Assembly (NCBI GenBank): GCA_964583975.1
Contig: CAZOXU010000001.1
Span: forward strand, 163,552 to 227,551
Origin: an uncultured Planctomycetales bacterium
GTDB taxonomy: Bacteria > Omnitrophota > Gorgyraeia > Zapsychrales > Fredricksoniimonadaceae
Direction: 5' to 3'
DNA: 64,000 nucleotides
Position numbers and translations under genes: made by a program. Numbering within the stretch: the first letter of the stretch is position 1; the number at the start of each line of letters is the position of its first letter. Of this stretch, positions 40,635 to 63,826 are shown one piece after another. The notes below the pieces were generated by a model. That model saw only the letters and a list, made by a program, of their open reading frames with translations, did not search any database and had not been told where the DNA came from.

Positions 40635-40708
40635 ATCAATTGTTAAAATATAGCATATTCTTGCCTTTATTCGAGACGTAATATATACTTTTATTGTCTT
40701 ATCACGTT

Positions 40709-41728
40709 ATGATATCTAAAAAAATAGGTCAATCCATTATTGAGTATGTCCTTCTGGCAATGCTGGTCATTGTTGGCACCATTGTCATGGGCCCCTATTT
40801 TATCCGTTCGATTGGTTCCCATTTTCATTTGTGGCAAGAAGCTGTTGACGACTCGATCGATGATCGCATGGTCCAGGCCAAAGGCGTTTCAATTCCCACG
40901 ATCTGTCAATGCGGCCCGCTTCAATCCGGAGCTTGCGGAGGCCATTTTCAAACTTCCAGTGCCAGCTGTCCGGTTGATTCTCGCTATTCTTACACTCCTT
41001 GTTCGCCGCCTGGTTGCGGGTTCACCTCTCCAGGATTTCAAGAAACATGTGTCTTAGATACTAATTTCTGCTGTGCTAACTACCGGCTTTGTTCTAATTT
41101 TTACAATCCAGGCAATCCAGGATGCTGTGGCCGAACTCCTTTAAATAATCCAGGATGTCTCAATAGGCCAGTGGGAGTTGAGTTAAATGCAGTGAATAAC
41201 CCTGGCACGGCCCCTAGCAATTACTCCAACTATTGTTGTTACAATGAAATGGCCCTTATCAATAACTGCTATCAAGATGCTGCTCATTATGCTTTTATTA
41301 AATGTCAACGTGTTCCAGGCCAATGTCAACCGATGTGTACCGGCACGCCTCATGCCCACTCGCATGCTTGTCCCGTTGGTACATTAACTCAAGATAGACC
41401 TTATACTGTGGTTCCAGGAGCTACTTGCCCCGCTCCCGGTGATGCATGTAATGAGATTTGTGATGTTGGGTATCAATGGAATGGTACTGCGTGTGCTACA
41501 CCAATGTACCAAATAGCTAGTAATCCCAATACAAATCCACCTGAACAAGAAACAAACTCCAATAATCTACCTCAAGGTCCTTGGTGCTTTAGCGGAATAG
41601 TCACTTCCATTACTTCAGCTGGAGTTGGATGTAACGTAGGACCCGACCCTAATCCAGGACAAGCTGGATCTGGATCAGGCGCCAATGCTGGACCTCCCGG
41701 ACAAAATTGCTCCTTAGTTGTTAATTAA
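40709..41728 (+). CDS. Cysteine-rich secreted protein with an Flp-pilin / class III signal-peptide leader (candidate hyper-modified pilin-like or RiPP-like precursor)
   Basis: From the ATG at 40709 the product begins MISKKIG|QSIIEYVLLAMLVIVGTIVMG, which fits the Flp prepilin motif G|xxxxEY followed by a hydrophobic helix. The ORF-track start at 40694 is a TTG 15 nt upstream. The mature region of ~310 aa has about 27 Cys (~9-10%), many NPG/PG repeats and Ser/Thr/Asn-rich stretches. Its stop overlaps the start of the kinase gene by 1 nt. Confidence 0.5.
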   Translation: MISKKIGQSIIEYVLLAMLVIVGTIVMGPYFIRSIGSHFHLWQEAVDDSIDDRMVQAKGVSIPTICQCGPLQSGACGGHFQTSSASCPVDSRYSYTPCSPPGCGFTSPGFQETCVLDTNFCCANYRLCSNFYNPGNPGCCGRTPLNNPGCLNRPVGVELNAVNNPGTAPSNYSNYCCYNEMALINNCYQDAAHYAFIKCQRVPGQCQPMCTGTPHAHSHACPVGTLTQDRPYTVVPGATCPAPGDACNEICDVGYQWNGTACATPMYQIASNPNTNPPEQETNSNNLPQGPWCFSGIVTSITSAGVGCNVGPDPNPGQAGSGSGANAGPPGQNCSLVVN

Positions 41729-42705
41729 TGTACTCAAAAACTTCTGCCTCGACCTCTCGCGGAATAAATCCTAAGCTCCTTGCTTCCCCGAAGGATATTA
41801 CTGAGCTCTGCAAATTTTTTAAAATAGGCAAGCTCCAATCTTATGAACAAGAAAAAGATATTCTTCGTTGTCACTTCAATGTATCGATTTTTGTCGTTAC
41901 AACTCAGGGTGAGTTTAGATTTAAGTTCTACCCTTCTCATAGAACCAAAAATATTCTATTCGAATATAAAATTAACCATATTCTGAGGGCTCATCGTTTT
42001 CTGACCCCTTCCATGTACGCTGGCTCTAATCATCGCAGCTTTTTTACCCACAAAAATCATCTTGTTACCTGCTATTCGTATATCGAAGGGTCTGTGTTAG
42101 ATAAAAAACATATCCAACGACCAAAAATCGTTGAACAAATTAACGCTGGCCTACTTTCTTTAAAAAATATTTTAGCTGCTAAATTGCGATCCATTCCTTG
42201 TGAGAGACAAGAAAATTTTGTTACCACCGTTCATATGCTAATCCAAAAACATCGGGCCATGTCTGCATCGAACAAAAAAAAGGTCATTGAAACATCGCTC
42301 CTGGAGATCTGCCGAACCTATCAACACCATCAAACGTTATTTACCCAACAATGGATACATAATGACGCTATTTTAAATAATTTTCTTATTTCTAAAAAAA
42401 CCATCTACACTCTAGATCTCGAACATATCCAGAAAACGTACATACTCACTGATTTAGCAAAACTCGTCATCTCGTGTTTGTCTTTTGATGCTTCCACCTC
42501 AACGATCAAAAACATCGTTAAGAACTACTTCGCTCAACATCAATTAAAACCTCAATATTTGATAGTTCTCGAGACTCTCATTAAAATGTATCTCATTTGG
42601 GAATATTTAGGGGCCTACCAAAACGCAGATATCCATCAACAACGTAAGAAATCTATTACTCAACTCATAGAGAAAATAAACGAAATCCCAGAGCTTATTA
42701 GGTAA
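41728..42705 (+). CDS. Protein kinase-like phosphotransferase (APH/choline-kinase/HSK-II fold)
   Basis: The catalytic-loop-like WIHNDAILNNFLI (HxDxxxxN) is followed by YTLDLEHI (DxE/DFG-like). The gene is translationally coupled to the upstream Cys-rich protein gene. Confidence 0.45.
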   Translation: MYSKTSASTSRGINPKLLASPKDITELCKFFKIGKLQSYEQEKDILRCHFNVSIFVVTTQGEFRFKFYPSHRTKNILFEYKINHILRAHRFLTPSMYAGSNHRSFFTHKNHLVTCYSYIEGSVLDKKHIQRPKIVEQINAGLLSLKNILAAKLRSIPCERQENFVTTVHMLIQKHRAMSASNKKKVIETSLLEICRTYQHHQTLFTQQWIHNDAILNNFLISKKTIYTLDLEHIQKTYILTDLAKLVISCLSFDASTSTIKNIVKNYFAQHQLKPQYLIVLETLIKMYLIWEYLGAYQNADIHQQRKKSITQLIEKINEIPELIR

Positions 42706-42706
42706 T

Positions 42707-43528
42707 TTATTCTCTTCTCTTAGCGCCTTCTAACCAAAGACCGTGAATAATCGCTTTTAGCTTCGAATCATCGATAGGGTCACTGTCTGAAACGATTGGC
42801 GCAGGTGAAGCTCGGTGACCAAAGGCCTTGACCAAAAGAGGACGTACTAATAAAGGAACTTGGACTTCACGAGGAGTATTTAGGTGAGGAATTTGTTGAG
42901 CAATGTCTAATGCACGTAAGAGCTTCTTGTCTTTCTTTAAAGCAACTGGAATGGATTGGGACAATTTGAGCATTGAATCAGAGAGAAATGGAAAAACGAA
43001 GCGACATCCATGCTTCTGGGCCACCTGGTGATGCGCCTGGGTATCAGCCATGGCCCAATCCCAAGCTTGGGTAAAGCGAGGGTCTTCTCGATCGAGCGCC
43101 TGATCACCCAACCACTGATCACTTCCCATTCCAGAGATAAAGGTATCTCCAGCTATTTGAGTATCATATTTCTTGAGTGCCGCATACACAACAGCCAGAT
43201 CGAGGTCTAAGAGAGGTTTGTCTGTCATCGGACAGAGAGCTTCAAACGCAGATAAGAATTCTACAGTCTTAACAGGTAAAATGTGATGTTCAATTCCAAG
43301 TGTCCGGGCACTTTGGATCGAACTTTGCACAGTTAAGGGATTAAAATCTTCAAACTGCACTGTTACAGCAACGATCTTAGCTCCGCAGTGCTGGGCCAAG
43401 CATGCCATAAGCATCGAATCAAAACCGCCGCTAAACATAATGGCCTTGCGAGTGCCTTTAATCTGACCGACACTCTCAATCAGTGTTTCTTGAAGGTTCA
43501 GAAGCGTTTTATCCCCTGCGTTAATCAT
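42707..43528 (-). CDS. PP-loop ATP pyrophosphatase, asparagine-synthetase C-domain-like (amidotransferase/adenylating)
   Basis: AIMFSGGFDSMLMA is an SGGxDS PP-loop. The product is ~270 aa and stands alone. Confidence 0.5.
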   Translation of the reverse strand: MINAGDKTLLNLQETLIESVGQIKGTRKAIMFSGGFDSMLMACLAQHCGAKIVAVTVQFEDFNPLTVQSSIQSARTLGIEHHILPVKTVEFLSAFEALCPMTDKPLLDLDLAVVYAALKKYDTQIAGDTFISGMGSDQWLGDQALDREDPRFTQAWDWAMADTQAHHQVAQKHGCRFVFPFLSDSMLKLSQSIPVALKKDKKLLRALDIAQQIPHLNTPREVQVPLLVRPLLVKAFGHRASPAPIVSDSDPIDDSKLKAIIHGLWLEGAKRRE

Positions 43529-44255
43529 TGCTTATGTCCTTAAACAGCTGTCCTTTCCATCCCTGCTTCACATTTAAAGCAGCCATATACTTAAAAAATT
43601 GAACCAATTCCTTACGCGAAGCTGCAGTTTTAAAATCAGCGTGATGAGTCACTACCCCTGCAATCGAATGAGCAGCCACACTCTTAACGAGGTTAGCAAT
43701 TACTTCCGAGGCTTTATAAACACTGGTTTCACCCAAATCATATCGACTAAAAGAGACTTGAACTGACAAATCAATGAAACGTCGCTTGATTCCTCTTGAA
43801 GGATAGCCTGCAGAGAAAATCTTAAAGCCTTCTTCTTTGAGAATCCGTAAGGTGCGTTCATCATAGCCATGATATGGTGGGACAAAGGCGCGAGTGAAAT
43901 ATTCTCCAAAAGCTTGCTGCATCTTTCTTAACCCTTGTTGAATATCTTCACGCTGAGATTTTAGTGATCGCAAAGGTCCAAACTCATATTTGGTGCCGAT
44001 CTTCTTAGAATAATTCTTATGCATCCATCCATGCTGGACAATATCAAGTAAATGGGGATTTCTGGCCTTGGCTTGGCAGAGAAATCGAACTGTCGGTTCA
44101 TCAATTTTGCCCGGGATCACGGCATGAATTACAGGAATCTTATGCTTGATCGCTAAATCAAAGAAGTAACGAAACTCTCGATCCAGCGTCCAGGGATCAT
44201 CGTTCCTGATAAAAAAACGTGCACTCGTCATATTATTAAGTATACTATTTTTCAC
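43521..44255 (-). CDS. Polysaccharide-deacetylase-like (NodB homology / CE4-like) hydrolase
   Basis: FIRNDDPW (DD motif) and VQHGWMH (His pair) are spaced as in NodB-domain motifs 1 and 2. This is a tentative call. Confidence 0.35.
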   Translation of the reverse strand: MKNSILNNMTSARFFIRNDDPWTLDREFRYFFDLAIKHKIPVIHAVIPGKIDEPTVRFLCQAKARNPHLLDIVQHGWMHKNYSKKIGTKYEFGPLRSLKSQREDIQQGLRKMQQAFGEYFTRAFVPPYHGYDERTLRILKEEGFKIFSAGYPSRGIKRRFIDLSVQVSFSRYDLGETSVYKASEVIANLVKSVAAHSIAGVVTHHADFKTAASRKELVQFFKYMAALNVKQGWKGQLFKDISND

Positions 44256-44261
44256 AAAACA

Positions 44262-45461
44262 ATGCGCGTCTTATTCCATTACACTCATAAACAAACCCTC
44301 GGACATACCACCAGAAGCGTTGCTCTTTGCAATGCTATTTTACATCATAAAGCTGATCTTCTGATCCTCCAAGGCGGGGTGCCGCAGCCTTTTATTCATT
44401 TTCCCAAAGGCGCTCGAGTCCTAGATATTCCTTCACCATTTGATGATCGTCGCAGTTTTCAAACGCTTCCAGCTGCTGTATCAGCAGCTCAACGGGCCCA
44501 ATTTATCCTCAAAGTGGCAGAAGAATTTGCTCCCGATGTTTTTATTACAGAATTCTTTCCCTTTGGCAGAATGGCCTACATGTCCGAACTTCTGCCGACC
44601 TTACGCACCTTACGTAAAAAAGGCACTCGCATTATAGCTAGTATTGGCTATCCCTTTCTGGCGGAATTAAATCGGATCGAGGATCCTAAACAAGCTGAGC
44701 TTCAGCAAGCCCTCTTTGCCTTCTATGATCGATTCTTAATTCATACACCTAAGGATCTCGAGACTCCTTACATCAAAAAGAGCATTGCCTCGCCAACGCT
44801 TGCCAAGTTATACACCCGAGTCCTCAAGGATTTAGCGAAGAAAATTGTTTATACAGGCTATGTCTACCCTGAAAAAATCATGACTGGTGGCGGTCAGCTG
44901 CCGACGTTTAAGAAATCAACGAACACCATTGTTGTTTCGCGTGGCGGTGGTGCGGTTTATCCTAAACTTATTACAGCAGCGATCGAAGCGCAACGTCAAC
45001 TGGATCAAACCTACCAAACCATCCTTGCCTGCGGGCCAACCACCACCGAGGCAGAAATGAAGTTATTTCAATCTTACATTAAGCCTCAAGATAAAAATCG
45101 TATCCATCTTGTCAGTCACCTGGATAATCTCGATGATCACTTAAGTCAATGCCATGTTTCGGTGAGTCTGTCGGGATATAACACCTCGGTGCAATTGATG
45201 CGCCATGGCACACCATCGGTGATTGTCCCTTACAGAAATACCCTTGCTAAAATCTCAACGAGCGATCAGGTTGCTCGAGCTGCACTTTTGCAAGCAAAGT
45301 TTCAAAGCACCATCCTTGATTATGAGAGCTTAACTGAAAACTCCCTTGCTAGCGCCATCCAAAAACAGATAAGCCAGCCACGACCCAAGGCCGCACCTGC
45401 CAACTGGTTTAAAGGCGCTGATCATTCGGCACGTATTATCGTTGAAGATACTCGAGATTGA
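44262..45461 (+). CDS. GT-B fold glycosyltransferase (GT1/GT28-like), paralog of 62600..63826
   Basis: The N-terminus is MRVLFHYTHKQTLGHTTRSVAL. The internal VVSRGGGAVYPKLITAAIEA block is shared almost verbatim with the 62600..63826 product (VVRGGGAVYPKVIAEAIRA). Confidence 0.4.
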   Translation: MRVLFHYTHKQTLGHTTRSVALCNAILHHKADLLILQGGVPQPFIHFPKGARVLDIPSPFDDRRSFQTLPAAVSAAQRAQFILKVAEEFAPDVFITEFFPFGRMAYMSELLPTLRTLRKKGTRIIASIGYPFLAELNRIEDPKQAELQQALFAFYDRFLIHTPKDLETPYIKKSIASPTLAKLYTRVLKDLAKKIVYTGYVYPEKIMTGGGQLPTFKKSTNTIVVSRGGGAVYPKLITAAIEAQRQLDQTYQTILACGPTTTEAEMKLFQSYIKPQDKNRIHLVSHLDNLDDHLSQCHVSVSLSGYNTSVQLMRHGTPSVIVPYRNTLAKISTSDQVARAALLQAKFQSTILDYESLTENSLASAIQKQISQPRPKAAPANWFKGADHSARIIVEDTRD

Positions 45462-46422
45462 ATTTCTTTAAAAAACCATGGTAGGCAAAACAACGAGGAC
45501 AATCGCCCTTGGCTGCAGCTTCACTATGTTGCTTTCTGATCGGATCTAATTGCTCAGGCAAGGATCCATCAAAGCCAACCTGGCCCGCTGGTGAGAGATA
45601 AAGACACGGATAAACATTACGCCTGGAATTAATAAACAACGATTTGGCAGGTGTAGCACAAGCTCGAATACATTGCCTTCCACCTTCTAATAAAACCATG
45701 CTGGCTTCAACCAATTTCCTATCGACTCCTGGATAGTTATCTTTAAGGATCTCATTAATCTGAGCTTGCACGCTTCGAACCATGTCAGGGCCTATGGCTG
45801 CTAATGTATCTGTATTAAGCATCGAATGGCGATGATAATAATCTTCAACACCTGATTCCATGATCTTAGGTGAAAATCTGGCTTTAAACTGGCGAGCTAA
45901 TTGATAGACATCCTTGATCTCAAGATAATTGAGTTGATTGATCGTAAATTTAAATTCCATCTCAACATCTTGGCCATGATTCTCTGCGAGCCATTGAATG
46001 GTCTTGATCGTCTTGGCATAAGCTCCTGGCCCACGCAAACGATCGTGGGTAGCTGGGAGGCCATCAATGCTGATACCCATATCTATCCCCTTCAAGAACG
46101 GGCCATAATTCGTAAAAACCCGACGGACGCCTTCAAAATACGCTGCATTGCTGTACACCCCAAAACTTCGAATGGCTCCTTGAGTACGCAATAAAGATAA
46201 CGCTTTTAACAAACGACCACAGTTACGATTTAAAAATGGTTCGCCACCTGTAATCGATACCGAGAAAATCTGATAACGTTCTAAGAGCTCACGCATCATG
46301 CGTACAACCATCGAAGCGGTCATTTCATGGCGCTCTTTTTCCGCCCATATGCCACAATGCTGACAGTGCAGTTGGCAATGATTGGTTATTTCAACGGTGA
46401 CATTCTCAAGTACGGGCTTCAT
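45436..46422 (-). CDS. Radical SAM / SPASM-domain enzyme (peptide-maturase type)
   Basis: The cluster CQLHCQHCG (CxxxCxxC), GGEPFL and C-terminal Cys arrays CIRAC...YPCLY...GDCPRCF are SPASM-like. Confidence 0.65.
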   Translation of the reverse strand: MKPVLENVTVEITNHCQLHCQHCGIWAEKERHEMTASMVVRMMRELLERYQIFSVSITGGEPFLNRNCGRLLKALSLLRTQGAIRSFGVYSNAAYFEGVRRVFTNYGPFLKGIDMGISIDGLPATHDRLRGPGAYAKTIKTIQWLAENHGQDVEMEFKFTINQLNYLEIKDVYQLARQFKARFSPKIMESGVEDYYHRHSMLNTDTLAAIGPDMVRSVQAQINEILKDNYPGVDRKLVEASMVLLEGGRQCIRACATPAKSLFINSRRNVYPCLYLSPAGQVGFDGSLPEQLDPIRKQHSEAAAKGDCPRCFAYHGFLKKFNLEYLQR

Positions 46423-47407: not shown

Positions 47408-47416
47408 TAAAACCCA

Positions 47417-49296: not shown

Positions 49297-49304
49297 AATA
49301 TTCT

Positions 49305-54523: not shown

Positions 54524-54526
54524 AGG

Positions 54527-55960
54527 TTATAAGGTTACCTCGGCTAATAATTCTTTGGAAATTGCAGGTTCATGGCTCTTGTCTGGCTCGCTAGAGTATA
54601 TCATTTTATAAAAATGAATCTTCGAATACCTGCTTAAGTCCATACCATCCCTCTGCATCAGAATGATCAAGGTCTTTAATCGTTCGTTTTTTTGACTTCC
54701 CTCTGGCATGGCCAGAATACCATTGATCATACTGGTAAATCGAAAAGCTTCCATCTGTTGCTTTAAGACCTTAAAACTGATCAACTCTTCCTGATCACCC
54801 TTAACACCGTAGGCTTCGATGGTAGCTACTCTTGCCTCGGTGATTCGATTAGCAAATGTTGGATAACATGCAAAAGGCCAGCCCGCTATTGTTTCTTTAA
54901 ACCCAAAAAAGCAATTAACCATCAACAAGACTGATCCAACGCCTATGATAATTTTCTGGTCTAAAGCAGATTTCTTAGATGGATTATAATTCATTTTCTC
55001 GGGATTGCTTTTGCTTATCCTAGCTAACAAACCATCCCAATTAATAAAGGCAACATAACAAATTAGCAGATTAAAAAAACTGATCTTCATAAACACATAA
55101 ATCATTGTATGAAAAAATAAACCTGCAGTGACAGCTATTGGTCGTAATGTGGGGAAAAATATAAACACCACAAAGAACAACTCAAAGATAATAATTCCTA
55201 AACTAGCCGCCTTATATAACACAGGATATTGGTCTAAACGAAAGAATGGCAGCCACCCATCGAGCTCAAACCATTTGGCATATAGATGATATTTTAAATT
55301 ATCGGACCAAGCCCAATCCGCCGATACAGCCAATTTCCAAAAACCCGGAAAGAAATAAATCATTGCTATCAAAAGCCAGATAAAACGTAACGGCAAGGCA
55401 TATTCAACCGAATTGGGAATTCTGCTCATCATTCTCTTCCGGGCTTGCCATAATGAGTCTATGGACAACACATCGGCACAACGTGAAGCGCTTAAGATCA
55501 ACATAAACCATATCAAATGATGGTTATGATCGACCTTGCCATAACATTGGCTGATGCCCATCACATAAATGCCACTGATAGCAGCGATAAAACAGGTCCA
55601 GCGGGCAAAGCATCCAAACATGGCCAAAATACAAGCAACTGTAAACACAAATAGGCTCTTCTCAACCAATGCAGGATTGATGGGAACAATGGATAACAAG
55701 GTGTTCATCCCTATCGGAACCACTCTCATCTCAGACGGTAATTGGCTAAATCCAATGCTTGTGGCCCATAAGCCCTGTAATTGTGTGAGAATGAAAAGAA
55801 ATAGGATGATACGAAATATGGCAAGGTTAAAAGGCGAGCCTTTCTCTGAGAAGAAATTCTTAACGACTGATTTTATCCGAGGCAGCAGACGCCATGGATC
55901 GCCATTCAATATGTATAAGAATAGGAAGAAAAAGAATACAAAAAATACGGTGAATTTCAT
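54527..55960 (-). CDS. HTTM-domain (vitamin K-dependent gamma-carboxylase-like) polytopic membrane protein
   Basis: N-terminal ..SPFNLAIFRIILFLFILTQL.. matches the HTTM L-x-x-F-R-I motif. The ~477-aa product has many TM helices. Confidence 0.4.
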   Translation of the reverse strand: MKFTVFFVFFFFLFLYILNGDPWRLLPRIKSVVKNFFSEKGSPFNLAIFRIILFLFILTQLQGLWATSIGFSQLPSEMRVVPIGMNTLLSIVPINPALVEKSLFVFTVACILAMFGCFARWTCFIAAISGIYVMGISQCYGKVDHNHHLIWFMLILSASRCADVLSIDSLWQARKRMMSRIPNSVEYALPLRFIWLLIAMIYFFPGFWKLAVSADWAWSDNLKYHLYAKWFELDGWLPFFRLDQYPVLYKAASLGIIIFELFFVVFIFFPTLRPIAVTAGLFFHTMIYVFMKISFFNLLICYVAFINWDGLLARISKSNPEKMNYNPSKKSALDQKIIIGVGSVLLMVNCFFGFKETIAGWPFACYPTFANRITEARVATIEAYGVKGDQEELISFKVLKQQMEAFRFTSMINGILAMPEGSQKNERLKTLIILMQRDGMDLSRYSKIHFYKMIYSSEPDKSHEPAISKELLAEVTL

Positions 55961-56835
55961 TACGCTCCGGCTGCTTTGGCTTTCTTTAAAATAAATTCCA
56001 GGGCTGGCACCTTGACTCGCAATTTGTGCGCCTGTTTGACCAGCGCTCCTGTTATAAAATCAAGTTCTGTCTTTCGATGCGCAAAGGCATCATCAGCAAT
56101 AGATCCCCGATGACGAATACCAGCTAAATCTCCCGTACGTACTCTAGAGATTAATTGCAGCGGATCAAAGGCAAGCCGTATCTTTAAGGCGCGAGCCACA
56201 CTACGGCCTTCTGCTGCTGCCTGGCGTACCAATCGCCAAATTTCTGGGTCCTTCGCTAAAACATCATATCCACCTGATGTGATGACTGGCAGAGGATTCA
56301 TCACTGCACTGAAAATCAATTTAGCCCAAACGATACTTTGTGGATTAGAGACCACTGATGTGTTTAAACCTGCCTCGGTAAAAAGCTGTCGAAACCACAT
56401 CGCAGCCTGAGAATCCTTCCCCTGATGAGGACTAACGAAGAATTCGCCCTGGTAATAAAACAAGGGTTTTCCACCAGGGATACCGATCGCTGATGTTGTC
56501 ACCCCACGGACAAAGGAAGTTGTGGGAAATAGGCGTTCTATGGAAGAGAGATTCAGGATTCCGTTTTGCAGAAAGAGAATTCTTTGAGCAGTGATTGTAT
56601 TTTTTAAAGGTATTAATGACGACTCAAGATCGTAACATTTGGTGGAAACAATCAAACCATCAAAGGATTTCCCCTTTAAGGCTTTAGCATTCGTAACGAT
56701 ATGACGTCGATTTTTAACACGGGCTGAAGGATCTAAACCTACAACGTTGGTAAATTGCTCGAGACGTTCAATTAAAATTCCACCTAAAGCCCCACAACCG
56801 ACAACAAGGATACGTCGCTTTGCCACCTTGCTCAC
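55960..56835 (-). CDS. NAD(P)-binding oxidoreductase, 2-dehydropantoate 2-reductase (ApbA/PanE/KPR)-like
   Basis: RILVVGCGALGGILIERL is a GxGxxG Rossmann motif. The ~290-aa size and C-terminal helical domain are consistent with the KPR family. Confidence 0.45.
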   Translation of the reverse strand: MSKVAKRRILVVGCGALGGILIERLEQFTNVVGLDPSARVKNRRHIVTNAKALKGKSFDGLIVSTKCYDLESSLIPLKNTITAQRILFLQNGILNLSSIERLFPTTSFVRGVTTSAIGIPGGKPLFYYQGEFFVSPHQGKDSQAAMWFRQLFTEAGLNTSVVSNPQSIVWAKLIFSAVMNPLPVITSGGYDVLAKDPEIWRLVRQAAAEGRSVARALKIRLAFDPLQLISRVRTGDLAGIRHRGSIADDAFAHRKTELDFITGALVKQAHKLRVKVPALEFILKKAKAAGA

Positions 56836-58016
56836 ACAAGCTCCTTCTCATTGTAAAAAATAATGCCTTCATCCTCAAAAAATGATTTTGGAGTATACCA
56901 GCCTTCCTTCAAACCTTTGCGATAAAAGGCTGTGCCAGGCAATATCACTAAGCGATTGGTTGTCACCGCAACCTCTGACCCTAATTCTTCTAAAACTGAT
57001 AAGGTCATTTTCTTATCAAGATCTGTTTCACCAGGATTTCCCACTGTAATTAACACTTCCACCCTTAAACCCGCTTCTTGAGACCAGCGCACCGCATCGA
57101 GGATTTCCTGACGGCTATAAACCTTACCAATTCTCCGTAAAACTTCGGGCGAAGCTGACTCGACTCCAAAATAAATCTCCCGGCAATGAGAACGTCCCAT
57201 CAGTAAAAGTGTTTTCTGGCTTACTGAGTTAATACAGGCGGAACAACTCCAATAAAACTCACCCTTAATTTTTCGTAAACCTTCGCATAAGGCGGCCAGA
57301 CGCTTATGATCAGCGGCAATGTCTTCATCAAGGAACTGGATGTTTTTGACCTTATGGACTTCCACAAGCTCACGGATTTCTTGCAAAACATTTTCAACGC
57401 TTCGATTACGAACCTTACCTCCCCACAGTACATTGCGATCACAATACACACAATGATACTGGCATCCGCGGGCAGTCATAATAAAGGCTGGCTGAAATCC
57501 CTGCTTATGAAAATAAGGGCTGATAAAAGGAATTTGATCTAAATCATGGTTGGAATGTTTTGGCGTATGAATGACCTTGCCATCTTCGAGAAAAGATATG
57601 TTTGGAATCTTCTTCCAAGAGGCAGTCTCTTGAGGCGCTTGCAATATGGCTGGGATCACAAATTCTGGATCATGCGATACAACAATATCAGCCAATCCCC
57701 GAGTCAGCATTTCTTCAGGAAATGAAGAGGCGAAAGATCCGAAAGCAATAATCAACTGTGGGGATTTCTTAGCAGCGCGGGCCTTTTCTATGTGACGAAA
57801 GGCATTGATCTTATTGCCAAAGAAAACCGCATAACAACAAATATCAGCCTGCCCTTCCTTAGGGGTTTGGCCTTTCATATCTGACATGAAATCAATATAT
57901 CTAGCCTCAAACCCTTTATTCTGTAGGGCTAGAAATACTCCCCCAGCCGTATAACTAACCAATAAAGGCCCACAGCACGGCGGGCGGCTATTAGCTTCTA
58001 TAATCACGTCAATCAA
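56832..58016 (-). CDS. Radical SAM enzyme with an N-terminal B12-binding-like domain (class B, cobalamin-dependent type)
   Basis: RGCQYHCVYCD (CxxxCxxC) sits in the middle of the protein. The N-terminal ~150 aa are Rossmann-like with a CCGP segment. Confidence 0.5.
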   Translation of the reverse strand: MIDVIIEANSRPPCCGPLLVSYTAGGVFLALQNKGFEARYIDFMSDMKGQTPKEGQADICCYAVFFGNKINAFRHIEKARAAKKSPQLIIAFGSFASSFPEEMLTRGLADIVVSHDPEFVIPAILQAPQETASWKKIPNISFLEDGKVIHTPKHSNHDLDQIPFISPYFHKQGFQPAFIMTARGCQYHCVYCDRNVLWGGKVRNRSVENVLQEIRELVEVHKVKNIQFLDEDIAADHKRLAALCEGLRKIKGEFYWSCSACINSVSQKTLLLMGRSHCREIYFGVESASPEVLRRIGKVYSRQEILDAVRWSQEAGLRVEVLITVGNPGETDLDKKMTLSVLEELGSEVAVTTNRLVILPGTAFYRKGLKEGWYTPKSFFEDEGIIFYNEKELV

Positions 58017-58888
58017 GATGCGCTCCTTTGGCTTCTTCTCGCATTGAAATTAAAATAAAATTGCATCTTCTGCTTGGGATTCCACTGCATACTTAAGTAC
58101 TCTAATTTTAAATCATGAAAAATTTGATAAAAATCAGCTATAAACCGTGCCACGTTTTGTCGCGGATCAAATATCTTTAACAAAGTGACAAACTTCCTGG
58201 TCTGATAACGCATGTCTGCTCTTAAAGAACGACCCTTCGGTGAATATTTCACACAAATAAGGAATTTCTCTGAAAGAAGTCCTTTTTGACGTAATAGATC
58301 ATATTTTAACATTTCCCCTCGAGCGAACTCTCCAGAGAATTTCTCAAACAATTCTTCTAAATTAAATAGGCCAAAATAAACCTTAATCGTGGCCTGACCC
58401 TCATGGTCCCAATCGATCCCTGAAAACTCTATTCGTTTAAACAGGCTTTGATCTTTTTTGAATGCAGCCTGTGGGATATTTAGAAGCGTGAATGATTTCG
58501 CAATATGCTCGACCTTTTGGGCTTGCAACTGCTGACGTCCATAAAAGTTATAAATCTTGATGCGACCAACGCCTTTACCCGATGGATAATCCGCTAAGCC
58601 AATCCCAAAACATTTTTCTGTTGTATTTGTATAAAGCAAATCCTCAATCAGTGGTATTTTTCGGCGGCACGCAGCGAACCATTTTAAAACATCTTGCCTG
58701 CCAAGCCCTTCAATCGATAATCTCATACGATCTAATCTAAGACCATCGACCACTTCACAGGAAATTTCAAATTTCTCATCGGGTATTTCAAGTTTTTCGT
58801 AGGCCCGCAAGTATTGGGCAAATTCTCCAGAACTGTCGCAACTCAATGCGTCAAAGAACTTTGTTCTGAAATCTTTAGGAATTTTCAC
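58013..58888 (-). CDS. Hypothetical protein (cluster-specific, unknown fold)
   Basis: The 291-aa product has no motif assigned. It sits between two radical SAM genes with 4-nt and 15-nt spacing. Confidence 0.3.
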   Translation of the reverse strand: MKIPKDFRTKFFDALSCDSSGEFAQYLRAYEKLEIPDEKFEISCEVVDGLRLDRMRLSIEGLGRQDVLKWFAACRRKIPLIEDLLYTNTTEKCFGIGLADYPSGKGVGRIKIYNFYGRQQLQAQKVEHIAKSFTLLNIPQAAFKKDQSLFKRIEFSGIDWDHEGQATIKVYFGLFNLEELFEKFSGEFARGEMLKYDLLRQKGLLSEKFLICVKYSPKGRSLRADMRYQTRKFVTLLKIFDPRQNVARFIADFYQIFHDLKLEYLSMQWNPKQKMQFYFNFNARRSQRSAS

Positions 58889-58903
58889 AGTGACCTATAA
58901 ATT

Positions 58904-59800
58904 TTAGACAGCAGTGCTGGCCTGTCGTGATATCCAACTATTGGAAGACATCGTATCTCTATACATTTTAGGCAGCCCTATGCAGTCAGTCCCTTTACAA
59001 CAGGCATAACTTTGATACTCACAAGCCTCAAATCTTTGATCAACAAACTTATCAATGATGCCAAAAGTAATGGGCTGTCTATTATCATGGTATTTCTTAT
59101 AAGGTTCATCTAAAAGACAGGCGGGGAAAAATTTAACACAGATCCTCCTATTGTGACTCAGAAGATATTTGATTGTCTTATTAAGATAGGGTCCGGTTAA
59201 TTCATAAGGCAATAATAATTCGGGTGCCTGCACAGTCATAGGCACGTATCCCCAAAAATGCATTCCCAGGATATTATCAAACCCTTGAAGAAATTCTCCA
59301 ATTTCTGGCAATACCTTGTAATTTTGCGAACTCATGACCGTATTAGTAAATACCGTCAGATCTAGTTCCCTAAGATTTTCCAAAGCTTTGACTGTTTGAG
59401 CATGAGCTCCAACTCGACCAGTGATCTTGTCAGAAAGATCATAATCAGCGCTATGGAAAGAAACAAAATAATGATTAATGCCGGCATTTTTAAGTTGTTG
59501 GGCTTTTTCGATTTTAGATAAGGCCCTGGCATTGGTTTGAATCATAATATTCTTAAATCCCTTGTCCCGGGCTACAGCAGCATATTCGGGCAATTCCTCA
59601 TTGATCGTCACTTCCCCGCCAGAAAAAACAACACCCGAATATTTACCCTTAGGGATCAGGTCTAAGGATTTCTTAAAAAGAGGCAACGACACTTTGCGCA
59701 AATCTACGAGCTGTTCTTCGCTGCCTTCAATAAAACAGATCCCGCATTTGCTATTACATTTGTGTTCAATGACAAACACTAGATATTCATCTAAGTTCAT
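58904..59800 (-). CDS. Radical SAM enzyme with a C-terminal Cys-rich (twitch/SPASM-like) segment
   Basis: HKCNSKCGICF and FSGGEVTI are present. The C-terminal segment is CEYQSYACCKGTDCIG. Confidence 0.6.
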   Translation of the reverse strand: MNLDEYLVFVIEHKCNSKCGICFIEGSEEQLVDLRKVSLPLFKKSLDLIPKGKYSGVVFSGGEVTINEELPEYAAVARDKGFKNIMIQTNARALSKIEKAQQLKNAGINHYFVSFHSADYDLSDKITGRVGAHAQTVKALENLRELDLTVFTNTVMSSQNYKVLPEIGEFLQGFDNILGMHFWGYVPMTVQAPELLLPYELTGPYLNKTIKYLLSHNRRICVKFFPACLLDEPYKKYHDNRQPITFGIIDKFVDQRFEACEYQSYACCKGTDCIGLPKMYRDTMSSNSWISRQASTAV

Positions 59801-59818
59801 CTCATACCCTTCCTGAGC

Positions 59819-60679
59819 TTAAAAAACATTGTAGTAACTGCTTTTACTAAATACTGGGCCTTGTGGTCCTAAGGCGCAATCAAAAGCCACATCATATAAC
59901 AAATGGTTAAATTTAACTTTATTCGACTTCATAAAATCCAAAATATGTGAAGGATAAGCGAAAAATTCTAAGAAATATAACAGTTGATCGACGTTCACTC
60001 TTGAGAAGTAAATCCCGTCCGTATTCTTCTTATGGGCTACGCATATTTTGTGGCATGACATTAATTTTCTAATCAAAACATGCTTTAACAGAGCGACCCT
60101 ATCTTTGGCAAAGAAAACACCCTGCTTAATTTTATAAATAAACGGCTTTGCCTCTTGTGGCATCAAATAAAAATCGTAATAGTTTTCAAACACAATGCCA
60201 TCTTGCCCCCAACAGTAACTCGTTCCCTGGGATATTCCAGATCTTCCTTCCATATACAGATGGACATTTTTAATTTGTCGGGATTTTAAAATAGCATCAG
60301 ACAAATCAATTGAGAACATCAAATAAGGCTGATTTTCAATGCTAATGTCAGCAAATTCGGGAATTTTAAAGTGTGATCGAAGGGTTTTAAGGACATGTTC
60401 GACTTTTTTGCGTGGATCTTTGCGGCCATTATTATAAAAGTAGAGCTCCCAGGTGAGGTGTCGGTTATCCCATTTAACTCCCCAAACGGTATTCCATGGA
60501 CCCAAAGAGTCTTGTAGCCTTTTGCTGACGTTTAAGAAATCTTTTTGGTAAGTGCTATGCAGTAAAGAGTTCTGAAAAATTAGATCTGAGGAAAGTTTAC
60601 CCTTAACAGGCTTAATCGGCACATAGGGGTTATGACAATAATCATAATATTCCCAATTTTTCTTCATAACAGGATCCAT
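59819..60679 (-). CDS. Hypothetical protein (cluster-specific)
   Basis: The 286-aa product has no motif assigned. It is divergent from the prepilin peptidase gene. Confidence 0.3.
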   Translation of the reverse strand: MDPVMKKNWEYYDYCHNPYVPIKPVKGKLSSDLIFQNSLLHSTYQKDFLNVSKRLQDSLGPWNTVWGVKWDNRHLTWELYFYNNGRKDPRKKVEHVLKTLRSHFKIPEFADISIENQPYLMFSIDLSDAILKSRQIKNVHLYMEGRSGISQGTSYCWGQDGIVFENYYDFYLMPQEAKPFIYKIKQGVFFAKDRVALLKHVLIRKLMSCHKICVAHKKNTDGIYFSRVNVDQLLYFLEFFAYPSHILDFMKSNKVKFNHLLYDVAFDCALGPQGPVFSKSSYYNVF

Positions 60680-60775
60680 TCTACAAGTAAATCCCCACTT
60701 AAGAACACCCTTCTAATATTAAATATTATAACATATAATACGGCTGTTTATTAATGCTTCGAGGAGGAACATCGC

Positions 60776-61648
60776 TTGGAATCAACCATTGTCTTTTCTT
60801 CTATTATCCTCATTGTCGGTTTATTGACCATACTTTCCGATTTAAAAAATAAGAAAATTTATAATAGTCATCTTATGATTGGATTCGTTCTAGGCCTCGC
60901 AGGGATCGTTTATACCTCAATTTGGACCCAGGAACCGGTGGTCTTTCATATCATTAACGGTATTATCGCCTTTATAACTGGGACCTTTCTCCATCGGATC
61001 AGTATATGGAAAGGCGGAGATGCTAAATTATTTGCACTCTACGCTTTTCTCATGCCTGCCATCGAACCTAATCCCTTGCCTTCGAGCGTCATCAATCTGT
61101 TCGCCTGCTCTTTTATTGCCGGGACGATGGTCATCCTGCCTTTCTTAATAAAAGATACCTTTTTAAATTATAAAGCTATATTAAGAAAAATCACTTCTCC
61201 TGATCAACGCAAGCCACTGCTCACAGCTATTGGTATAACCTGCTTCTACTCCTGGATTTTCTTTCCTCTTTATTATTTCGCAGGGTTTATCCGCATTCCT
61301 GCGCTATCAATGCTCATTACCTATTTTATTTTTTACATTGTCCGCCGCTATATAAAAAAGGCCCCCATAACACGTCAGACCCAAAACATATTGATCGGCT
61401 GTGGTATTGCTCTGGGATTCTTAATGCGTTTTTGGTTAAGTCCTTCTTCTTTATCCTGGCCAATCCTAGGCTATTCTATTCTTAAAATAGTTGTCTTTTC
61501 CACTCTAGCGGCTGGCATTTACATAGTCATTGATTTTTTTAGTAAACAATATCACGATCGTGTTGCTTTTGCGCCTTTGTTGTTTATAGGCTGTGTTCTG
61601 AGTTATACTCCCTTTATAACCTGGATCATGCATCTTAGACATTTATGA
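60776..61648 (+). CDS. A24-family prepilin peptidase (TadV/CpaA-like Flp-type leader peptidase) with an extended C-terminal membrane domain
   Basis: The two catalytic-Asp motifs of A24 peptidases are present: LSDLKNKKIYN (D-x-x-x-[RK]-x-I-P/Y-N) and WKGGDAKLFA (GGD[AV]KL). The start is a TTG with a GGAGG RBS 8 nt upstream. The product is 290 aa versus ~150 aa for a typical TadV. Its stop overlaps the start of the next radical SAM gene (ATGA). Confidence 0.55.
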   Translation: MESTIVFSSIILIVGLLTILSDLKNKKIYNSHLMIGFVLGLAGIVYTSIWTQEPVVFHIINGIIAFITGTFLHRISIWKGGDAKLFALYAFLMPAIEPNPLPSSVINLFACSFIAGTMVILPFLIKDTFLNYKAILRKITSPDQRKPLLTAIGITCFYSWIFFPLYYFAGFIRIPALSMLITYFIFYIVRRYIKKAPITRQTQNILIGCGIALGFLMRFWLSPSSLSWPILGYSILKIVVFSTLAAGIYIVIDFFSKQYHDRVAFAPLLFIGCVLSYTPFITWIMHLRHL

Positions 61649-62643
61649 GACCATCTTCTCCTTTAGAAATCATCATTGAAATTACCGGCAAATGTCGTCT
61701 GGTTTGCCCCTACTGCACGGGCCCACGAAGCGCTGATGTTCCCTTAAAAGATATTAAATCGACCCTGGATGAAGCAGCCAGCCTAGGTGTTAAGGCTATT
61801 CGTATTACGGGCGGCGAGCCGCTCCTGCATCCTGAGATTAAAACCATCCTGACCTACGCTAAGTCTAAGAAATTTTCGGTCTTACTCAACACAGCGGCTG
61901 AAGATATCTCCCCCGCTTTAATGAAGACTCTTATTGCTACCGTTGATGTGGCCTTAATTTCTCTGCAAGGATATGATGAAAAATCTAACGCCGCCTATAC
62001 GCGCTCGCGTCTGGCTTATTTGGATAAAATCAAAAATATCTTTCTCTTAAAATCGTATCTGCCAACCTTGTGGTTGGCCACTGTCATTACTCCAACCATG
62101 GCCGACTCTTTCGACCGATTCGTGCCGCTTATTAAAAAGATCAATCCAGTGGCTTGGACACTTCTGCGACCGATTAGCGATGCCAATGAAGACCTTCAAC
62201 ACATGGATCTAGCTTTCTATCGCGGACTCACACTTAAAATCATGCGAGCCAGAAAAGACATCAATGTTTTTATAGCCAACCCCATCCCGCTTTGTATTAC
62301 AGGAAATTTGACCATCGGCAAGGAAGCATTTTTCGGAGCAAACTTTGATGACGGTCATGTACGCATTGTGCGTAGCGCCCAAGGCTACTACAAACCCAGT
62401 TATTTTATTGAGAAGAATTTAGGTGATACGATCAAGGCTGCTTGGGCGCATCCTTTTTTAAATGATATTGACCGAACAGATTATTTACCTGATTTATGCC
62501 AACGCTGTCCGGTGCTTGATACCTGTCGTGGCGGCTGTCGAGCCATGGCCCTGCGGGCTTATGGGAACGCTCTTGATAAAGACCCTCTTTTTGATCCTCT
62601 TAAAGCAAAGAAAGCTCTGTTAAGTGCTTCTCTAAAATCTTAG
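61645..62643 (+). CDS. Radical SAM / SPASM-domain enzyme, translationally coupled to the prepilin peptidase gene
   Basis: GKCRLVCPYCTG and ITGGEPLLHP are present. The C-terminal CQRCPVLDTCRGGCRA is a SPASM-type CxxC..CxxxC segment. Confidence 0.65.
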   Translation: MRPSSPLEIIIEITGKCRLVCPYCTGPRSADVPLKDIKSTLDEAASLGVKAIRITGGEPLLHPEIKTILTYAKSKKFSVLLNTAAEDISPALMKTLIATVDVALISLQGYDEKSNAAYTRSRLAYLDKIKNIFLLKSYLPTLWLATVITPTMADSFDRFVPLIKKINPVAWTLLRPISDANEDLQHMDLAFYRGLTLKIMRARKDINVFIANPIPLCITGNLTIGKEAFFGANFDDGHVRIVRSAQGYYKPSYFIEKNLGDTIKAAWAHPFLNDIDRTDYLPDLCQRCPVLDTCRGGCRAMALRAYGNALDKDPLFDPLKAKKALLSASLKS

Positions 62644-63826
62644 CCCCGCTAAACCATTCTTTAGGAATGTTACGAATTTTTGCTCGAGAAGTGCAAACTT
62701 TCTTGATGGAGCGAGCTAAACTTTCTGCGGTTAATTCTTGGTAAGGTACAATTTGTGCACCTAGTACATCTTTGAGCATTCTGGCTCGGGCTGGTTGTTC
62801 AGAATGAGATTTTGCTCCATAGCCTTCAAAAGGAACGATCACAGCCCTTTTGTGATGTTTAAGCAGCATGACTGAGGAATGGTATGAGGCAAGCGATACA
62901 CACGCATCGCTACTTTTAATTAATCCCTCATAATCGCCCAAGGATCGGCGTAATACTAAATTCTTGACCTTCTTTTTAGCCATCAGGGTCGAAAATAGAT
63001 ACCATTCCTGAGTGGTGGTTGATGGTCCTGTCACAACTGTAAAATAATAGTCTGGACCCAATAGCTCACTGGCCCGGATAGCCTCAGCAATGACCTTCGG
63101 ATAAACAGCCCCGCCTCCTCTTACAACAGCGATGCGATAAGCACCCTTGGCGACGGACGGCCGCGGTGAATTGACATCGGTATCATCTTTGACCACTTCT
63201 TGCTCAGGCAAAAGATAGCCTGCAAAGATGATCTTTTGTTCGTGTTCTTTGAAAAAATCTAAATAGCGTTGTCTCTCTTTAAGTGAAGATAAAGAATCGA
63301 CAATCCGATCTTTTTCCATCTCAGGTGAAAAAATAATTATTTTCTGAAACAGTTTTAAAATATTTTGACGCCATTCTTTTGTGCCTGTTAATAGTGGATA
63401 CCCTGCAACCGACCAGACAGCAGCTCCACCTTTGGAAGCCTCCACCAAAGAAGGAATCAATTCATACCGCGATTCTTCACGACCCAGTGGAAAAAATTCT
63501 GTGACAAAAAGATCGGGTTTCTGACGGGTAATAATATCTCGGCATAGTACAGAACGTGCCTCGGTATCGATGGCATTGGGTTGGATTGGTTCTCGAAAGC
63601 TATTTCGATCCACAAAAGCTTTAGGTAAGGAATAGATCTTGCCCCATTGCTCTAATTGAGACTTAGGCTGGGTAACTCCTGCTTGAATAAAAAAGAGGTT
63701 CCCTGATGGAAATCTCTTTTTAAAAACCTCACTGATGGCTGCCACACGAGAAGTATGGCCAAAACATTCGTAGTGAGAGAAATATATACCTATTTTTGGA
63801 TCAGCCTTAGTGACTAAGCCTCTCAT
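62600..63826 (-). CDS. GT-B fold glycosyltransferase (GT1/GT28-like), paralog of 44262..45461
   Basis: N-terminal IGIYFSHYECFGHTSRVAAI parallels LFHYTHKQTLGHTTRSVAL of the 44262..45461 product. The VVRGGGAVYPKV block is shared. Confidence 0.4.
   Translation of the reverse strand: MRGLVTKADPKIGIYFSHYECFGHTSRVAAISEVFKKRFPSGNLFFIQAGVTQPKSQLEQWGKIYSLPKAFVDRNSFREPIQPNAIDTEARSVLCRDIITRQKPDLFVTEFFPLGREESRYELIPSLVEASKGGAAVWSVAGYPLLTGTKEWRQNILKLFQKIIIFSPEMEKDRIVDSLSSLKERQRYLDFFKEHEQKIIFAGYLLPEQEVVKDDTDVNSPRPSVAKGAYRIAVVRGGGAVYPKVIAEAIRASELLGPDYYFTVVTGPSTTTQEWYLFSTLMAKKKVKNLVLRRSLGDYEGLIKSSDACVSLASYHSSVMLLKHHKRAVIVPFEGYGAKSHSEQPARARMLKDVLGAQIVPYQELTAESLARSIKKVCTSRAKIRNIPKEWFSGAKILEKHLTELSLL

Follow-up and report, generated by a model that had tools for sequence, protein, structure and literature searches.

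The His-Xaa-Ser (HXS) system, HxsABCD, is a self-contained four-gene defence system of Proteobacteria in which radical S-adenosylmethionine (rSAM) enzymes mature an N-terminally processed periplasmic effector with His-Xaa-Ser repeats, and 99.7% of the described HXS systems are found in Pseudomonadota (PMC13128918). We analysed a 64,000-nucleotide (nt) stretch of contig CAZOXU010000001.1, from an uncultured bacterium placed in the Omnitrophota and called the window throughout, in which ten rSAM genes lie among sugar enzymes and the gene of an A24 (GxGD) prepilin-type peptidase, next to the gene of a 339-amino-acid (aa) Cys-rich protein. The window carries one copy of an rSAM, sugar and prepilin-peptidase island that is widespread in uncultured Omnitrophota lineages. 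We tentatively read this island, at somewhat less than an even chance, as a maturation island linked to a type IV filament, with a small peptide known from relatives as its main substrate and the Cys-rich protein as a substrate of the A24 peptidase rather than as the core of a peptide made on the ribosome and modified after translation (RiPP).

The likeness to HXS lies in the HxsC/HxsC4-like rSAM of the window and, in relatives, in HxsD, an HxsB that passes its family cutoff and an adjoining His-rich peptide. However, the window rSAM is far under the HxsC cutoffs, the module is surrounded by over 10 additional rSAMs, by sugar enzymes and by the A24 peptidase, and the relatives' peptides, which are 70-105 aa long with a transmembrane-like segment and an HTN/HTS tail, differ from HxsA (PMC13128918). 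With the Tad/Flp and type IV pilus systems (TadV/CpaA/PilD) the locus shares an A24 peptidase with both catalytic Asp residues, an adjacent secretin, a G-1...E+5(Y+6) processing site followed by a hydrophobic helix and, in relatives, T2SSE and T2SSF genes adjoining the island. It differs from them in that the Cys-rich protein has no match to a Flp, TadE or N_methyl hidden Markov model (HMM), is 332 aa long when mature compared with about 50-80 aa for Flp, and has a Cys-rich domain of no known fold; the A24 peptidase, of about 290 aa, carries an additional conserved membrane domain at its C-terminus and shares an operon with an rSAM gene, and the window is without TadA/B/C/Z genes.

The multiple SPASM/twitch-type rSAMs of the locus recall the rSAM/SPASM RiPP and cofactor pathways (pyrroloquinoline quinone, mycofactocin, ranthipeptides/PapB and sactipeptides), and the best matches of its rSAMs are PqqE, PapB and anSME-type maturases; mycofactocin clusters also contain glycosyltransferase and protease genes. 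Unlike those pathways, the window has neither an equivalog-level match nor a short precursor gene, and its protease belongs to the membrane GxGD aspartyl peptidases instead of being a soluble leader peptidase. Glycosylation islands for pilins, flagellins or S-layers are similar in that DegT, GT-B, deacetylase, reductase and amidotransferase-like enzymes stand beside pilin-like genes, and a nonulosonic-acid-type sugar cluster lies elsewhere in the same window, but the island itself is without oligosaccharyltransferase or nucleotide-sugar activation genes, and none of the glycosylation islands known to us carries ten rSAM genes. The component families are all known, and together they are most fittingly described as a new form of known systems, rSAM peptide maturation (HXS-like) and pilin processing or modification. 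The library of papers searched held no description of an A24 peptidase paired with rSAM enzymes, nor of this Omnitrophota island.

Conservation of the island in Omnitrophota

Listing and translation of open reading frames (ORFs) gave 23 ORFs from 40694/40709 to 63826, arranged in six strand blocks within 23 kb (in order, two plus, two minus, one plus, fifteen minus, two plus and one minus), with gaps of 18 nt or less between genes within 41728-60679. An earlier, sequence-only reading of this DNA had reported 23 genes with much the same domains, ten of them rSAMs with a CxxxCxxC motif, and ORF listing, Pfam and NCBIfam bear this out. The same reading had all genes running head-to-tail, which the six strand blocks contradict, and had the locus closing at 63826; bases 63827-64000 of the minus strand encode the C-terminal end of another conserved island gene, so that the locus extends past the window end. 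Domains were called by Pfam and NCBIfam profile scans of the 23 window proteins, in which no island enzyme of the window reaches a curated NCBIfam cutoff.

The spread of the island was followed by searching fetched loci with all 23 proteins by tblastn, together with gene tables (loci are numbered L001 to L016), and by homolog lists for two of its genes, the A24 gene and the following marker:

45436..46422, minus strand: rSAM1, twitch-like, Pfam Radical_SAM 1e-15, a highly conserved island marker

At least 120 homolog clusters of rSAM1 were found among the matches listed, the best of which (about 110) have 53-88% identity, while the A24 peptidase had at least 110 clusters among the matches listed, mostly 40-55% identical and nearly all of about 290 aa; in both lists the named ones are Omnitrophota. 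Since 13 contigs were common to the two lists by rough contig matching, rSAM1 and the A24 gene appear to lie routinely on one contig. The island core is kept at 40-79% identity in L006, L008, L014 and L015 and consists of GT28_a, rSAM1, the SPASM paralog(s), DegT, two PapB-like rSAMs, the PaaK-like ligase, ApbA, two proteins of no known family, the HxsC-like rSAM, A24, the PqqE-like rSAM and GT28_b.

Around this core the accessory genes differ. The window version has the APH kinase, an HTTM protein and a B12-type rSAM, and L002/L006 have methyltransferases and a halogenase-like gene. In place of the window's APH, L014 (12192-19512) and L015 (12171-14622) carry sulfotransferases of the 3'-phosphoadenosine-5'-phosphosulfate type and arylsulfotransferases; judged from these genes, the island product would be sulfated in the L014/L015 versions, where that of the window might be phosphorylated. 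The arm upstream of A24 in L016 (1-7801, on a contig with many frameshifts) has two ketoacyl synthases, an acyl carrier protein (ACP), MBOAT and PMT_2 (GT-C) replacing the window genes, and therefore the variable arm can include acyl or lipid chemistry.

The A24 peptidase and its coupled radical-SAM gene

Toward the far end of the locus, the peptidase gene forms a pair with an rSAM gene.

60776..61648, plus strand: A24 (GxGD) prepilin-type peptidase of 290 aa, extended at its C-terminus by a conserved membrane domain, Pfam Peptidase_A24
61645..62643, plus strand: PqqE-like rSAM with a C-terminal CxxCx5CxxxC motif, overlapping the A24 stop by 4 nt
60680..60775: divergent intergenic region of 96-97 bp, separating the 15-gene block from the A24-rSAM pair

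The A24 protein scored 28.6 bits to PF01478 over residues 11-119 (gathering score 26.5), and PF01478 is precomputed on most of its homologs. Both catalytic Asp motifs claimed in the sequence-only reading, D22 (SDLKNKKIYN) and D82 (GGDAKLF), are invariant in 17 homologs of 27-67% identity. The best PDB match of the coupled rSAM is PqqE (1.9e-13), and it scored 76 bits to the NCBIfam PqqE model, whose cutoff is 381.

The pair is intact and coupled by the 4-nt overlap in the window (and in L010, which is the window's own sequence on a short Logan contig), in L006/L007 and in L008, and it is present but disrupted in L009, by a transposase, and in L016, by frameshifts in the rSAM gene. The rSAM is 66-69% identical in L006/L007 and L008, where A24 itself is 47-50% identical, and 69% identical in L009, where it lies 3' of a C-terminal remnant of A24. 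The pair and the 15-gene block are divergently transcribed across the 97 bp between them. From these sequence comparisons we judge that the A24 peptidase belongs to the island.

A scan for promoters and terminators found promoter-like sites no more often than in shuffled sequence; one extended -10 promoter-like site at 60754-60725 (minus strand) is a consensus match only, no commoner than in shuffles. Terminator-like sites were about twice as frequent as in shuffled sequence, but every one was within coding sequence and they were left uninterpreted. In L009 (1-8263), a DDE transposase (5813-7132) stands between a full A24 gene and the C-terminal remnant of A24 (132-374), with the rSAM after the remnant.

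A small peptide, HxsB and HxsD in relatives

The end of the window and the small peptides of relatives are as follows.

62600..63826, minus strand: GT-B glycosyltransferase GT28_b, Pfam Glyco_tran_28_C 2.7e-5
63827..64000, minus strand: C-terminal end of the following island gene, truncated where the window stops; its translation ...CRILAHKRSVAQEEGDFDIWYDVVQGSKKCSDIANNEMRDACNAKG... matches L008/L009 proteins
L008 13845-14111, minus strand: small peptide
L009 3379-3666 and 9251-9520, minus strand: small peptides
L016 13887-14099, minus strand: small peptide (all four 70-105 aa)

After the A24-rSAM pair, the gene order in L008, L009 and L016 is GT28_b, a Cys-containing protein of 261-305 aa, a peptide of 70-105 aa, a 470-aa rSAM and HxsD, and in L009 and L016 only, HxsD is followed by a coiled-coil protein, T2SSF, MshEN and T2SSE. 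The window continuation is syntenic with L008 and L009: GT28_b is 58-62% identical in L006, L008 and L009, and the gene cut off at 63827-64000 is a homolog of the Cys-containing protein, which is signal-anchored and lies 3' of GT28_b in L008, L009 and L016. The 470-aa rSAM of L008 passes the HxsB equivalog cutoff over its full length (375 bits, cutoff 370), and HxsD in the relatives is called by Pfam.

The four peptides, from three genomes, share MKDEDGFVSKETI(L/F)KV(G/S)LSTVAALG and are identical in it save at two positions. A processing site, MKDEDG|FVSKE, can be placed in this sequence, its -1, +1 and +5 residues being Gly, Phe and Glu, and the 19-residue segment after the site has a Kyte-Doolittle mean of about 1.7 (calculated by hand). 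The tails are rich in His, Thr and Asn and end in C.(H/N)HTN(I/V)TTHT(S)Y, and no family match was found for the relatives' small peptides. We infer from these sequence features that the small peptide may be a type-IV-pilin/Flp-like subunit and an HxsB substrate at once, a candidate rSAM-modified mini-pilin. The pair of Cys-protein and small-peptide genes occurs twice in L009, so that part of the module is duplicated there.

The Cys-rich protein and its secretin

The near end of the locus and the genes just upstream of it are as follows.

40709..41728, plus strand: 339-aa Cys-rich protein with the leader MISKKIG|QSIIEY, a helix at residues 10-51, a Cys-rich beta domain at about 66-270 and a disordered, variable tail
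41728..42705, plus strand: APH-fold kinase, Pfam APH 8.4e-11, overlapping the stop of the Cys-rich gene by 1 nt
39050..39847, minus strand: short secretin of 265 aa, Pfam Secretin 2.6e-16, outside the region covered by the sequence-only reading
39801-40634, minus strand: RsmB/F methyltransferase, its 3' end overlapping the secretin start by 47 nt

The Cys-rich gene probably starts at the ATG at 40709 rather than at the TTG at 40694, giving a leader of 7 aa and a mature length of 332 aa, and it is the only leader-bearing ORF of the window. Its processing site, MISKKIG|QSIIEYVLLAMLVIVGTIVMG, has the form G|XXXXEY and is followed by a hydrophobic helix. E12 and Y13 do not vary among the four closest homologs and hardly vary among 54, one homolog having Ala at -1. 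Thus the motif and helix on which the sequence-only reading had based an Flp-type leader are present and conserved, but no pilin-family HMM matches: the full protein had no match at E<=0.01 to the Pfam pilin families (Flp_Fap PF04964, TadE, N_methyl and Class_IIIsignal), and its first 60 aa, searched against Pfam at E<=10, gave no pilin family and only a sub-threshold DUF3149. As judged by motif and profile, the 'Flp leader' is a resemblance at the motif level only. Cys makes up 27 of the 332 mature residues, or 8.1%, and not the 10% or so first estimated.

A k-mer-based homolog search returned only 4 relatives of this protein, and the impression of a tiny family was overturned by an exhaustive profile HMM search, which gave at least 372 clusters at E<=1e-3 and 175 at E<=1e-10. 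Sampled members have (K/R)xGQSIIEY, a helix with ...MGPYVLRSINAHFKLW(D/Q)(E/D)S.QDS and the Cys-rich module, with hypervariable C-termini and lengths of 63-1162 aa. An alignment of 54 members has seven invariant and more than 10 near-invariant Cys. The AlphaFold2 (AF2) model has a predicted local distance difference test score (pLDDT) of 79.7 overall and above 90 over most of residues 66-270, with a helix at 10-51, and a fold search matched no known fold. Such invariance of Cys in a confidently modelled compact domain is what structural disulfides typically show, unlike a RiPP core.

Scans of genomes and metagenomes with the family alignment found only five more loci, mostly short or at contig ends. 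The metagenome contig L013 is palindromic or chimeric, with duplicated and frameshifted genes for the secretin, an amidase and the Cys-rich leader, and was not used for downstream context. Two distinct family members, P0255 and P0257, are recorded on contigs of the same length, 18,794 bp, which hints at tandem paralogs in one genome. In every locus showing the upstream flank, the 5' neighbour of the Cys-rich gene is the short secretin; homologs 55-65% identical stand beside the Cys-rich gene in L001/L004, L002/L003 and L012, and partial or fragmented ones in L005 and L013. An RsmB/F gene lies between the two in three loci including the window, and not in L002.

The sequence-only reading had taken the 339-aa protein as the dedicated substrate of the island, crosslinked or decorated by the rSAMs, HTTM, kinase and glycosyltransferases and freed of its leader by A24. 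Several observations fit this: the gene lies at the island end and is coupled to APH by the 1-nt stop/start overlap, as had been claimed; the G-1/E+5 leader suits A24 specificity; L002/L006 retain the order of Cys-rich gene, APH and island although they are deeply diverged (A24 47%, Cys-rich 46%); APH homologs were found only in loci that also contain a Cys-rich gene, the one 3' of it (41% identical) only in L002/L003; and two further family members were roughly matched to island-bearing contigs (13828 and 66858 bp). However, the island is found in more than 100 lineages, yet a GQSIIEY-type ORF is missing from L008, L009, L014 and L015, and the far end of the island, visible in L014, has no gene of the Cys-rich type. 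In L001, which is closer to the window than L002 when judged by housekeeping neighbours, the syntenic ortholog has a permease and pilin-like genes after it, and the island does not adjoin it. Among the matches listed, about 4 of the 15 family members on contigs of at least 16.7 kb match island contigs and about 11 do not, by rough matching. A protein of 339 aa also far exceeds the size of rSAM RiPP precursors, the window proteins have no RiPP recognition element (RRE), and the invariant Cys fall in the confidently modelled domain. Co-occurrence of Cys-rich gene and island therefore holds in L002/L006 and fails in L001 and, by rough matching, for most members on long contigs: the Cys-rich gene adjoins the island in some lineages only, and the link is not obligatory. 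With a large family, invariant Cys, a folded domain and the secretin rather than the island as its partner, we consider it quite improbable that the Cys-rich protein is a Cys-crosslinked, RiPP-like substrate.

A proposed pathway

The broader part of the earlier proposal, a system that modifies proteins with pilin-type leaders, is strengthened by the A24-rSAM coupling and by HxsB, HxsD and the small peptide in relatives, but not with the Cys-rich protein as the substrate. From the observed gene content, conservation, coupling, family sizes and predicted fold, we envisage a supercluster of three parts. The first would be the type IV filament part, with the short secretin, the class-III-leader Cys-rich protein and A24, to which relatives add T2SSF, T2SSE and MshEN. 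The second would serve rSAM peptide maturation and comprise A24 with the PqqE-like rSAM, the HxsC-like rSAM and the two conserved proteins of no known family, along with the small pilin-like peptide, HxsB and HxsD in relatives. The third would be a sugar/acyl arm of DegT, two GT-B enzymes, DUF2334, ApbA, the PaaK-like ligase, the PP-loop amidotransferase-like protein and further rSAMs.

In this pathway the cytoplasmic rSAMs and the glycosyl and acyl enzymes would modify class-III-leader substrates inserted in the membrane, A24 would cut after Gly-1 (G|FVSKE in the small peptide and G|QSIIEY in the Cys-rich protein), and the filament machinery and secretin would export or display the products. 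The island would yield a small pilin-like peptide, filament or surface structure bearing heavy modification. As for the Cys-rich protein, it would be folded and rich in disulfides, acting as an accessory, tip or secreted pilin-like protein cut by the same peptidase; in this lineage it may receive a phospho- or glyco-modification through the coupled APH, without being a core substrate of the rSAMs.

A number of points weigh against this pathway. The small peptide, HxsB, HxsD and T2SSE/F are known from relatives only, and the window ends before them. The leader of G|FVSKE is acidic, and at 29 aa it is atypical of prepilins, while one Lys falls in the hydrophobic stretch. Every rSAM assignment in the window is under its family cutoff, and neither an RRE/PqqD-like domain nor an oligosaccharyltransferase was found among the window proteins with Pfam or NCBIfam. 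A24 might be just the general prepilin peptidase of the genome. A lipid-linked or small-molecule glycoconjugate is just as conceivable a product of DegT, the two glycosyltransferases, the deacetylase, the reductase and the ligase, and L016 has its ketosynthases, ACP, MBOAT and PMT_2 in this sugar/acyl arm. Taken to its full extent, as an undescribed Omnitrophota pathway in which pilin-like peptides, and perhaps larger class-III-leader proteins, are modified by HXS-related rSAMs and tailoring enzymes, cleaved by a dedicated A24 peptidase joined to an rSAM and assembled into filaments or exported, which would amount to a 'radical-SAM-modified pilus' or to a class of RiPPs with pilin leaders, we regard the proposal as doubtful, though with an appreciable chance of being right.

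Sugar, acyl and accessory genes

The remaining genes of the window island other than rSAMs are as follows.

42707..43528, minus strand: PP-loop ATPase, Asn-synthase-like, without a glutaminase domain, 273 aa, Pfam Asn_synthase 9.2e-12
43521..44255, minus strand: DUF2334/CE4-like deacetylase, Pfam DUF2334 6.2e-16 and Polysacc_deac_1 1.6e-6
44262..45461, plus strand: GT-B glycosyltransferase GT28_a, Pfam Glyco_tran_28_C 5.7e-11
50243..51379, minus strand: DegT-family sugar aminotransferase, pyridoxal-phosphate-dependent, Pfam DegT 2.2e-77
53357..54523, minus strand: PaaK-like adenylate-forming ligase, NCBIfam DVU_1553-family CoA ligase 6e-22 and PaaK 4e-21
54527..55960, minus strand: HTTM-domain membrane protein, Pfam HTTM 6.2e-9
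55960..56835, minus strand: ApbA/PanE-like NAD(P)H reductase, Pfam ApbA and ApbA_C
58013..58888, minus strand: conserved 291-aa protein with no Pfam, NCBIfam, PADLOC or PDB match
59819..60679, minus strand: conserved 286-aa protein with no family or PDB match, first gene of the 15-gene minus block

Most of these genes recur in other versions of the island. The PP-loop gene has a 51% identical homolog in L002, and L014 and L015 likewise contain an Asn_synthase gene; the DUF2334 gene is kept in L002, L014 and L015. GT28_a has 62-63% identity in L002/L006. The two glycosyltransferases, which the sequence-only reading had put at the two edges of the locus, do both carry Glyco_tran_28_C, but GT28_a lies 3.5 kb inside. 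DegT has 71% identity in L006, with a DegT gene at the equivalent position in L014 and L015, and its best NCBIfam matches, LegC, WecE and PseC, are all under cutoff. The PaaK-like ligase (Pfam AMP-binding 3.4e-5, under gathering score) has 69-70% identity in L006 and L008, and ApbA has 40-46% in the same two loci, with an ApbA gene called in L015 and L016 too. The HTTM domain, which defines the vitamin K-dependent gamma-carboxylase-like family, scored 36.3 bits over residues 45-302 (gathering score 27.7); the gene is missing from L006, L008, L014 and L015 and was found on the contig of the closest relative, and HTTM is an accessory, not part of most island versions. The 291-aa protein has a 53% identical homolog adjoining A24 in L008, where the 286-aa protein has one at 63%, and the two have no detectable relation to each other. 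A guess that the 291-aa protein, and perhaps the 286-aa protein, is an ABBA-type prenyltransferase found no support: there was no Pfam, NCBIfam or PDB match, and a single-sequence AF2 model (pLDDT 36) was unusable.

Such a set of genes raises the possibility that the cluster makes no peptide, but an unusual glycolipid, amino-sugar metabolite or cofactor, with A24 and the pilin-like genes as neighbours by regulation or history only. DegT, the two GT-B enzymes, DUF2334/CE4, ApbA, the PaaK-like ligase and the PP-loop protein would all suit this, the tailoring genes differ among genomes (L002, L006, L014, L015 and L016) as they do in natural-product clusters, the PapB-like rSAMs are without SPASM Cys sets, and no small ORF was found by ORF listing across 41.7-60.7 kb. 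Yet the A24-rSAM pair is conserved and translationally coupled, with one divergent control region common to it and the 15-gene block; the rSAMs are most similar to the peptide maturases PapB, PqqE and HxsB/C; and the syntenic block of relatives holds a cutoff-passing HxsB, HxsD and a conserved peptide. In addition, no sugar activation or dehydratase gene and no oligosaccharyltransferase was found among the 23 ORFs with Pfam or NCBIfam, genes of the activation and dehydratase type in the window being confined to a separate cluster at 778-13435. We consider a non-peptide product rather unlikely, while pilin glycosylation or an unusual sugar pathway, the fallback of the sequence-only reading, remains a live component of the explanation.

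Radical-SAM genes of the window

Ten of the 23 ORFs matched Pfam Radical_SAM (1e-14 to 4e-22), and the CxxxCxxC motif is present in all ten translations. In addition to rSAM1 and the PqqE-like gene, they are:

46406-47407, 47417-48319, 48316-49296 and 49305-50246, minus strand: four tandem rSAM paralogs, 51-53% mutually identical
51333-52364 and 52351-53454, minus strand: two rSAMs with a PapB/anSME-type core, NCBIfam PapB 1.6e-25 and 1.3e-22
56832..58016, minus strand: B12-binding-type rSAM, an accessory, Pfam Radical_SAM 3.8e-22 with a weak B12-binding match
58904..59800, minus strand: HxsC/HxsC4-like rSAM, NCBIfam HxsC4 1.2e-22 and HxsC 6.8e-15

The mutual identity of the four tandem genes upholds their earlier description as paralogs. 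The three SPASM/twitch-type rSAMs that had been claimed fared less evenly. Pfam SPASM matches the first and third paralogs, at 46406-47407 (0.0034, under gathering score) and 48316-49296 (1.9e-6), which keep a C-terminal Cys cluster motif, but the second and fourth have lost the Cys; the CxxCx5CxxxC motif in the 61645-62643 product is the third such feature, and none of the other seven rSAMs matched Pfam SPASM. L006 carries one pair of an intact and a degenerate rSAM, and the alternation of intact and degenerate copies suggests that the four paralogs may be such a pair duplicated.

The PapB-like rSAMs are 77-79% identical in L006, score far under the PapB cutoff (90 bits, cutoff 340) and have no visible SPASM Cys set. 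The B12-type rSAM (NCBIfam TIGR04013 5.6e-34, under cutoff) is only about 22-24% identical to a 461-aa rSAM at the equivalent position in L008, L014 and L015. The HxsC-like rSAM has 62% identity in L008; with 54.7 bits to HxsC (cutoff 267.9) and 80.6 bits to HxsC4 (cutoff 500), it is not an HxsC equivalog. PADLOC, run on the window genes, gave only generic viperin-type rSAM matches, and a known defence system was rejected on this result.

Genomic setting

The GC content of the locus (0.38-0.46) is inside the spread of the remaining window (0.34-0.45). No tRNA, riboswitch or mobile-element mark was found at the locus borders, the sole tRNA of the window being a tRNA-Pro at 30263. Because the GC content is unremarkable, the borders have no such marks and the island is widely conserved in the phylum, a mobile or foreign island was rejected; the island is lineage-typical and not recently imported.

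The six strand blocks within 23 kb also allow a composite, in which a pilus/secretin set, an HXS-like (possibly antiphage) system and a surface-glycan pathway are packed together in small, dense genomes and have no common product. The arms of the island vary independently of each other, HXS is self-contained in Proteobacteria (PMC13128918), and the Cys-rich/secretin pair of L001 stands alone. Against this, order and adjacency, the A24-rSAM overlap and the neighbouring genes of no known family among them, have survived deep divergence (A24 about 47-50%); rough contig matching puts island genes on contigs with Cys-rich family members; and PADLOC gave generic matches only. We find a composite unlikely.

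Upstream in the window, the separate sugar cluster at 778-13435 looks like a nonulosonic-acid or modified-glycan pathway, with a CMP-sugar-type cytidylyltransferase, a 706-aa RmlD-DegT fusion, a PseB/FlaA1-like dehydratase, a methyltransferase, a methyltransferase-GT2 fusion and a carbamoyltransferase. A 1065-aa DUF748 protein at 30374-33571 (plus strand), preceded by the tRNA-Pro (anticodon TGG) at 30263-30337 (plus strand), is syntenic with L001.

Implications for Omnitrophota

Omnitrophota are uncultured bacteria of ultra-small size, probably predators or parasites, and their pili are believed to serve in attachment to hosts (PMC10066038). The island is widespread, tightly conserved, rich in rSAMs, with ten in the window and more in relatives, and wired to a prepilin-type peptidase. 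It is likely to mark a heavy lineage-specific commitment to the cell surface or to an attachment organelle. The GQSIIEY Cys-rich family, with its at least 372 clusters and no known fold, is a new abundant class of pilin-like proteins that deserves a Pfam entry. If the small peptide is indeed both an HxsB substrate and a pilin, radical-SAM peptide chemistry would meet type IV filament biogenesis, two fields so far separate, and an A24 peptidase would act as a RiPP leader protease.

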